Assembly (NCBI RefSeq): GCF_006345805.1
Contig: NC_043011.1
Span: forward strand, 59,532,464 to 59,596,463
DNA length: 64,000 bases
DNA from: Octopus sinensis
Lineage: Eukaryota
Reading direction: 5' to 3'
The notes beneath the pieces are model-generated. The model saw only the letters and a list, made by a program, of their open reading frames with translations. It had not been told where the DNA came from and searched no databases. The translations under genes were made by a program, and so were the position numbers. Shown piece by piece: positions 2,557-2,890 of this stretch; within the stretch, counting starts at the first letter, position 1, and each line of letters starts with the position of its first letter.

Positions 2557-2767
2557 TACATTATTTACATTTGAAGGATATTTGTCCTCATCTTGTTTGT
2601 TGTTAACACAACGTTTCGGCTGATATACCCCCAGCCTTCATCAGGTGTCTTGGGGAAATTTCAAACCTGGGTTCTCATTCCTAAGGTATTTTTCGATGTT
2701 ATTATTAATATTATTATTATTATCATTATTATTATTATTGTTGTTGTTGTTGTTGTTGTCATTATTA

Positions 2768-2830
<63 letters not shown>

Positions 2831-2890
2831 CATCATCATTATTCAGGTCGTCACTGCCTGGAACCGACATCGGAATCTTGGAGTTCGAAT
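2557..2890 (-). mobile_element. Composite short repeat: possible tRNA-like head, (AAT/AAC)n, then Penelope-type tail with hammerhead
   Basis: 2557-2670 is nearly identical to the palindrome arms at 50602-50820; contains the hammerhead at 2606-2648; degenerate B-box-like GTCGGTTCC near 2856-2866. Confidence 0.65.
2606..2648 (-). ncRNA. Minimal type I hammerhead ribozyme motif
   Basis: acac CUGAUGA A GGCUG-ggggUAUAU-CAGCC GAAA CG UU gugu: intact core, 5-bp stem II, stem I acac/gugu, palindromic ACGU in place of stem III. Confidence 0.75.

Follow-up and report, generated by a model that had tools for sequence, protein, structure and literature searches.

At the start of a 64,000-nucleotide stretch of Octopus sinensis DNA (hereafter the window), a tRNA-like head, a microsatellite and a hammerhead ribozyme motif follow one another within about 330 nucleotides. 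The locus raises the question of whether these parts belong together and, if so, what kind of mobile element they form. The original prediction described a possible SINE-retrozyme chimera, i.e. a Pol III SINE mobilised by Penelope-like machinery and processed by its ribozyme. We analysed the copy in the window, its relatives in the genome (2.72 Gb) and related elements elsewhere. Positions within the unit are counted from the first base of the tRNA-like part (0), so that the A box starts at +7 and the hammerhead cut lies at +179. The A and B box consensus used for scoring was taken from PMC8969392.

Anatomy of the window copy and linkage of its parts

The copy occupies 2558-2885 of the window (Table 1). 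Its hammerhead was recovered by a motif scan at 2649-2605 and is of the minimal type, as had been proposed: a 5-bp helix I, CUGAUGA, one extra A (after A9), a 5-bp helix II, GAAA, a 4-nt palindromic helix III and a GUU site. Minimal hammerheads of Penelope-like elements (PLEs) have the same layout and are described as cleaving only as dimers, and weakly (PMC4209133). The call is made from motif and helix layout, not from energy: monomer folding was no better than that of shuffled sequences (z -0.6 to -2.1), and at the gathering score Rfam recognised neither a tRNA nor a hammerhead in the element. The window copy has no certain target-site duplication. Beside it lies a 100-N gap (window 3433-3532); to its right, 3533-3591 duplicates 2945-3000, which probably reflects an overlap in the assembly.

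Table 1. Coordinates of the two insertions in the window and of the cassette in the metagenomic contig L239.
Feature	Position	Strand	Remarks
Head remnant, 3' half of the tRNA-derived cassette (anticodon loop to beyond the B box)	2844-2885	-	5'-truncated, without A box
B-box position	2860-2871	-	three differences from the family majority; probably dead; no match to the A+B pattern
(AAT/AAC/GAT)n microsatellite	2699-2843	-	internal to the element; 48.7 copies, expanded to 145 nt
Linker	2650-2697	-	putative ORF start codon at 2678-2676; frame soon interrupted here by a stop codon
Minimal type I hammerhead motif	2605-2649	-	palindromic helix III; predicted cut between 2610 and 2609
Remaining pseudo-LTR up to the inner 3' end	2558-2604	-	optional ~32-nt tail absent or down to a few degraded bases
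Inverted arm of the second, head-less insertion	50573-50702	-	hammerhead (variant at free core position 7) and ~32-nt tail
Direct arm of the second insertion	50698-50820	+	shares 5 nt of microhomology with the inverted arm at the join
L239 cassette	A box 2829; ATG 2983		B box 55 nt on, short (AAT)n, in-frame hammerhead; between the stop of one ORF and the next ORF

The stretch read at the outset as a degenerate B box was located at 2871-2860, and the A box is indeed missing from this copy. The family majority does carry it: over 30 loci, the majority line agrees with TGGCNNAGTGG at every A-box position and with the B-box consensus at 10/11 positions. These canonical boxes are 33 nt apart, within the 30-35 nt of tRNA-derived SINEs. 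The full A+B pattern is still matched in 13/29, 12/29 and 6/19 sampled loci. The best local match of the cassette is tRNA-Arg(TCT) (z 7.8, 0/300 shuffles) within an incomplete set of 27 tRNA sequences, most of which also score well, so that the parent tRNA is not settled. Boxes and tRNA similarity of the family majority bear out the proposal that the head is tRNA-derived. A tRNA cloverleaf was found neither by ARAGORN (0 tRNA genes in the window and in 58 family loci) nor by Rfam (no tRNA match) nor by folding of the cassette (z +0.37); both boxes and their spacing are canonical although the cloverleaf has been lost.

Loci were sampled by three parts of the unit. Among those selected by the tail, the head remnant lies directly upstream of the microsatellite in 26 of 29 others, and an inverted head is present in 2 more. 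Thirty consecutive loci selected by the A box have the linker or tail downstream in 28 cases, and loci selected by the B-box region have the tail directly downstream in 10/19, with 4 of the remainder broken by another element inside (AAT)n. An 18-mer of the A box occurs 5143 times in exact form across the genome versus 0 for the reversed control. The tail and A-box samples uphold the predicted linkage of head, microsatellite and hammerhead, and a chance juxtaposition across the microsatellite was rejected on the same counts. At L036, L040, L046, L047 and L074 another long element has repeatedly been inserted in the (AAT)n of the unit; it resembles a microsatellite-targeting non-LTR element of the Dong/R4 type.

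A Penelope-type tail had also been noted at 50602-50820. The tail is there, in arms 90-91% identical to that of the copy at 2557-2890, but the site is an inverted pair and the head is absent.

The coding element and its relatives

An endonuclease-like reading frame lies just upstream of the unit at one tail locus, and a genome search with this frame returned 4125 candidates, of which 150 were scored. At 27/29 ORF-anchored loci at least part of the cassette is found ~30 nt past the stop of an ORF with RT and a putative endonuclease, and downstream of the cassette the hammerhead or tail is reached in 23/29; the microsatellite is 12-36 nt long in most of these copies. From the ORF stop, ~30 nt lead to the tRNA-like cassette, followed by (AAT)n, the ATG, the in-frame hammerhead, the end and optionally a 32-nt tail. 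This tail is the opening stretch of the next ORF copy and is usually present on one arm only. The RT domain matches Pfam RVT_1 (E=3e-8), has 89 homologues and is colinear in tblastn with an 847-aa relative. For the GIY-YIG endonuclease the element's own copies give no Pfam match and read VY..YKG at the motif positions; the relative P0005 matches weakly (E=0.23), and P0025 and P0056 carry PF01541.

Partial tandems give the element a pseudo-LTR (pLTR), seen as pLTR-body junctions in L194, L335, L339 and L342 and as a period of ~2.6 kb in L203, and 5' truncation and inverted 5' arms occur among long copies. The ORF is open from the ATG ahead of the hammerhead, through the hammerhead and into the conserved PLE N-terminus in L194, L342, L349 and L351, the last three out of 6 further junctions translated. 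The hammerhead stands in the same frame in the relatives P0005, P0242 and L239, whereas P0010-P0012 and P0015 begin at a more downstream Met.

The stretch in the window is the truncated 3' end (pLTR) of a PLE of ~2.6 kb whose ORF restarts inside the unit, and not a separate SINE with a borrowed Penelope tail. We hold this structural account with near certainty. The autonomous PLE sharing the tail, proposed as something to look for, exists, and both cassette and tail lie in its 3' end. What stands of a Pol III SINE mobilised by Penelope machinery is the tRNA-derived A and B boxes, the Penelope-type hammerhead end and the Penelope-type insertion marks. The independent SINE class or chimera does not stand, as the head is inside the 3' end and the 5' pLTR of a coding PLE and short and ORF-linked copies have the same variants.

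Two peculiarities were seen among long copies. In L332, L333, L336, L337, L338, L346 and L353, among others, the first ~225-300 nt of the ORF are followed abruptly by a second pLTR piece, which once starts at -6; the switch may mark a further priming or template-jump site. L329, L330, L331 and L340 represent one near-full-length insertion that recurs with its flank on four contigs, through segmental duplication or redundant assembly.

By its layout this PLE presumably belongs to the Penelope/Poseidon clade; our tree contains no named reference elements. A relative from its group is annotated in barnacle, and no relative was found in viral contigs. In addition, 79 metagenome loci were searched. 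One of them, L239 (contig JGI1357J11328_10009043), is an intact 855-codon PLE, 39% identical to P0005, with a cassette of its own (Table 1). The A+B pattern was matched three times in 599 kb and 0 times in five shuffled sets, and the two matches other than L239 lie outside PLEs. The L239 cassette resembles tRNAs (z 4.7) but not the cassette of the octopus element. A quick tree of 79 rows (55 proteins, 22 of the 79 metagenome loci and 2 own copies) places L239 in a 24-row group with the octopus element (support 96), not as its sister; the group also includes cassette-less members, e.g. L224 and L228. Independent capture of the cassette in L239 and in the octopus element would be the simpler reading, drawn from one possibly collapsed contig.

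In L239 the cassette, (AAT)n and hammerhead lie within L239:2757-3050, and the 2.79-kb unit has two T4 runs only and no T5. Further tRNA-like matches near the PLEs L227 and L296 fall outside the interval from stop to hammerhead and were judged to be neighbouring host SINEs: L296:2743-3146 is an inverted pair of tRNA-Thr-like SINE heads, and L227:1790-1857 is tRNA-like (Rfam 38.6 bits), ~420 nt before a PLE fragment.

Where the short copies begin

The 5' ends of copies were read by eye. In the A-box sample they fall at -12 to +7 in 20/30 loci, and the other 10 are spread from -45 to beyond -1300. A linker-anchored sample of 30 loci comprised 27 distinct insertions. Seven stop in the microsatellite or the linker and six within the head; fourteen extend as far as +7, and 12 of these stop in the following 20 nt. 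About 10% would be expected from the truncation rate within the head (P 2e-13 for 20/30 and P 1e-10 for 12/14). Genome-wide, exact 18-mers number 1042 just upstream of the cassette and 9230 in the linker, on either side of the A-box count given above. Match rates of these 18-mers are nearly equal among ORF-anchored copies (9, 10 and 9 of 29 for upstream, A box and linker), and the corrected arm counts are ~3,400, ~14,900 and ~29,700, respectively. Four 5' pLTRs reach the head. The start is at -2 in one and at -7 in another; a third starts at +29, next to an arm that ends at -6, and the fourth continues into an upstream ORF. In 4/16 short copies, 10-12 nt are shared at or close to the two ends, as possible target-site duplications.

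The pile-up of 5' ends sits 7-13 nt before the A box, the position of Pol III initiation on SINEs. An RNA beginning at the cassette would have priming sites 240-260 nt from its 5' end, so that the pile-up is likely to mark where the RNA begins. On balance we favour the reading that the window holds a 5'-truncated pLTR copy of a high-copy PLE whose built-in tRNA-derived A/B cassette is probably a Pol III promoter setting the 5' end of the RNA. Transcription would begin 0-7 nt before the tRNA-like part at a tandem master locus. The PLE protein would then prime reverse transcription internally at two tail sites, as in Poseidon_Ac of the green anole. For that element, two internal start sites of reverse transcription have been shown to delimit the tail, the initial 172 nt of the ORF being required and hammerhead cleavage dispensable (PMC11167929). 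Priming at the 5'-proximal pLTR would lead to run-off at the RNA end after ~240-260 nt and thus to SINE-like short copies, the cDNA of which would often fold back into a head-to-head palindrome; priming at the downstream pLTR would yield ORF-bearing copies. The hammerhead would not be needed for making short copies, and solo short copies would be dead ends because the ORF bases beyond the tail are missing. Counting against a Pol III promoter, the Penelope of D. virilis is reported to use an internal promoter of the Pol II type (PMC2377424).

The same ends could be produced with no promoter at all if the 3' UTR of a master PLE carried a tRNA or SINE fragment as passive cargo, the excess of 5' ends coming from RT pausing and template switching at a quasi-palindrome. 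Such a hairpin is centred on the pile-up, just before the A box, and owing to this coincidence template switching or RT pausing could generate the pattern. At the pile-up, 767 sites are perfect fold-backs versus 652 read-throughs; other inversion junctions also lie on microhomology (window 50698-50702), and no RNA start was seen in standard reads of one related species. However, many ends at -7 to +7 have no fold-back, L141 and L300 have apparent target duplications of 10-11 nt right at such ends, and unrelated pieces are joined at -7 to +7 in other loci. The preservation of boxes and spacing in a cassette without its cloverleaf also speaks against mere cargo, as does a second PLE lineage with a different tRNA-like cassette in the same place. 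We consider passive carriage a serious rival, though less likely than the promoter.

Raw RNA reads of one related species cover the unit mostly at 85-95% identity and on both strands equally, with a 2-3-fold step at the cassette and a fold-back junction. Sharp read ends at the cassette were absent from this standard RNA-seq, a library type uninformative on a Pol III start. Such a pattern would be expected of copies embedded in host transcripts. We also examined T4 runs: none is common to 18 copies over 2.2 kb, with ~4 expected from shuffles, and none occurs in the 3' unit, while 49 control PLE segments contain T4 at 1.48 times the shuffled number. With codon-preserving shuffles the octopus copies gave P 0.02-0.09 each. 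Because 4/30 cassette-less control PLEs are equally low in T4, avoidance of T4 was not accepted as proof of Pol III read-through; its scarcity is compatible with Pol III reading through the element, and nothing beyond.

A free-standing tRNA SINE with master copies of its own, which took a Penelope 3' end and was mobilised in trans as first envisaged, would agree with the SINE-like start of copies 7-13 nt before the A box and with the ~4/5 of A-box arms that have no upstream PLE sequence (14,900 versus 3,400 after correction). Against it, the head belongs to a coding element, and a terminator and a 3' repeat are absent. A comparison of 16 short with 30-34 ORF-linked copies revealed no diagnostic short-only variant (3 of ~215 positions reached p 0.04-0.05). 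Short and ORF-linked copies share variants and differ by 7-11% from the majority line, and therefore stem from the same masters in an old burst. By analogy with Poseidon_Ac as described in PMC11167929, solo copies would also be without the bases beyond the tail that the protein needs. A SINE of this kind appears improbable.

The exact position of the ends bears on two further mechanisms. tRNA-like processing signals exist in long RNAs, and the tRNA-like part could act as one, an RNase P-type cut at tRNA +1 releasing the element from longer Pol II transcripts. Several 5' ends do lie exactly at position 0. Many others, however, lie 4-7 nt upstream of +1, and the cassette has no cloverleaf by any of the three measures given above; we regard a processing signal as very improbable. 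Still less credible are non-LTR retrozymes, i.e. copies made from hammerhead-cut, circularised monomer RNAs. The minimal hammerhead is intact in most copies, with the family's U/A variant at the free core position 7, and retrozymes have been proposed to be derivatives of pLTRs (bioRxiv 10.64898/2026.07.22.740005). The octopus copies are instead dispersed singles or head-to-head pairs, and a head-to-tail pair of full linker-hammerhead arms was found in 1/27 linker-anchored insertions (L322). Nor do ends coincide with the cleavage site: copies span it and only 1/27 body-anchored insertions end at the cut. Ribozyme processing, part of the original prediction, is thus not supported as the source of copies.

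The Pol III promoter can be taken further, to a scenario that we put forward as tentative and doubtful. A coding retroelement would have swapped Pol II for a captured tRNA-type Pol III promoter, Pol III would read the whole terminator-free 2.6-kb unit, the uncapped RNA would be translated from the ATG through the hammerhead, and run-off cDNAs would make up the SINE-like family of ~15,000 copies. This would have happened at least twice in PLEs, in the octopus genome and in L239.

Relation to known elements

In structure the element is a PLE; it has neither the independence of a SINE nor the tandem form of a retrozyme. It would work like a PLE with SINE-looking by-products. With Penelope/Poseidon PLEs (PMC4209133, PMC8557442) and Poseidon_Ac it shares a single ORF with RT, a pLTR from partial tandems and, putatively, the C-terminal endonuclease. 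Also as in the Penelope/Poseidon PLEs of the available descriptions, it shows 5' truncation, inverted 5' arms, an optional tail of 30-40 nt and a minimal hammerhead with an extra base after A9; as in Poseidon_Ac (PMC11167929), its ORF starts within the hammerhead region. Unlike the PLEs so described, it has a tRNA-derived A/B cassette and a microsatellite in the pLTR, and most copies start there.

Schistosoma SM-alpha and Sj-alpha (PMC6765202) have a Pol III promoter upstream of a hammerhead, and an upstream copy transcribes the next unit, both of which the octopus element would share. According to the same source, however, they are non-coding tandem units with canonical active ribozymes, whereas in the octopus the putative promoter and the ribozyme motif together belong to a coding PLE as its terminal repeat. 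The TRIMp3 elements Cassandra, Helenus and Ajax (PMC10886601) resemble it in their small-RNA-derived Pol III promoter within the terminal repeat, with boxes kept and the tRNA fold lost. They are described as non-autonomous LTR elements, whose autonomous partners are argued to use Pol II, whereas the octopus cassette lies in the autonomous non-LTR element itself. TRIMp3 elements are recognised by two LTRs, a non-coding interior, a PBS and a PPT; the octopus interior is an RT-coding PLE body, and the likeness is one of analogy only.

Animal non-LTR retrozymes (PMC7229834, PMC7761336; bioRxiv 10.64898/2026.07.22.740005) are also short non-coding hammerhead units related to PLE pLTRs. They are defined by tandem units and circular RNA, with no tRNA-derived promoter mentioned in the portions available, whereas the octopus unit does not form tandem arrays. 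Like tRNA-derived SINEs, the octopus family has A and B boxes, a start 7-13 nt before the A box and ~15,000 short non-coding copies; unlike them, it has no lineage of its own and no 3' simple-repeat tail or terminator, and it shows Penelope-type ends and inversions. A PLE with a tRNA-derived cassette was not encountered in the literature searched, including the available parts of cephalopod repeat papers (PMC6962438, PMC13282606). The family may already be on record in Repbase or Dfam, in supplements or in subscription papers, early octopus SINE papers among them.

Read as a map, across the genome, of where the RNA begins, the thousands of short copies would make the transcription start of a PLE, the role of its hammerhead and the translation of an uncapped RNA testable. 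Pol III promoters are generally regarded as a feature of short non-autonomous elements only, a rule that would be broken if the pLTR of a coding PLE did contain one derived from a tRNA. In that case PLEs could also give rise directly to SINE-like or SM-alpha-like elements, and it would be clear how the next copy comes to be driven by a pLTR. Even if the cassette is passive cargo, the annotation is corrected in that ~15,000 apparent tRNA SINEs of the octopus genome are PLE ends.

Other repeats in the window were noted alongside. Two more hammerhead-like cores belong to other repeat families (46823-46843 on the plus and 47242-47264 on the minus strand), and the second recurs in the flank of L067. 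Tandem dimers at 10552-10926 and 27443-27815 consist of the 183-184 bp unit of another abundant SINE-like family. On the minus strand, 19061-19954 is a 66-nt tandem repeat with an open Pro/Thr-rich frame, with CAG-type repeats near it at 25661-26133; these are possibly minus-strand exons of a host gene.
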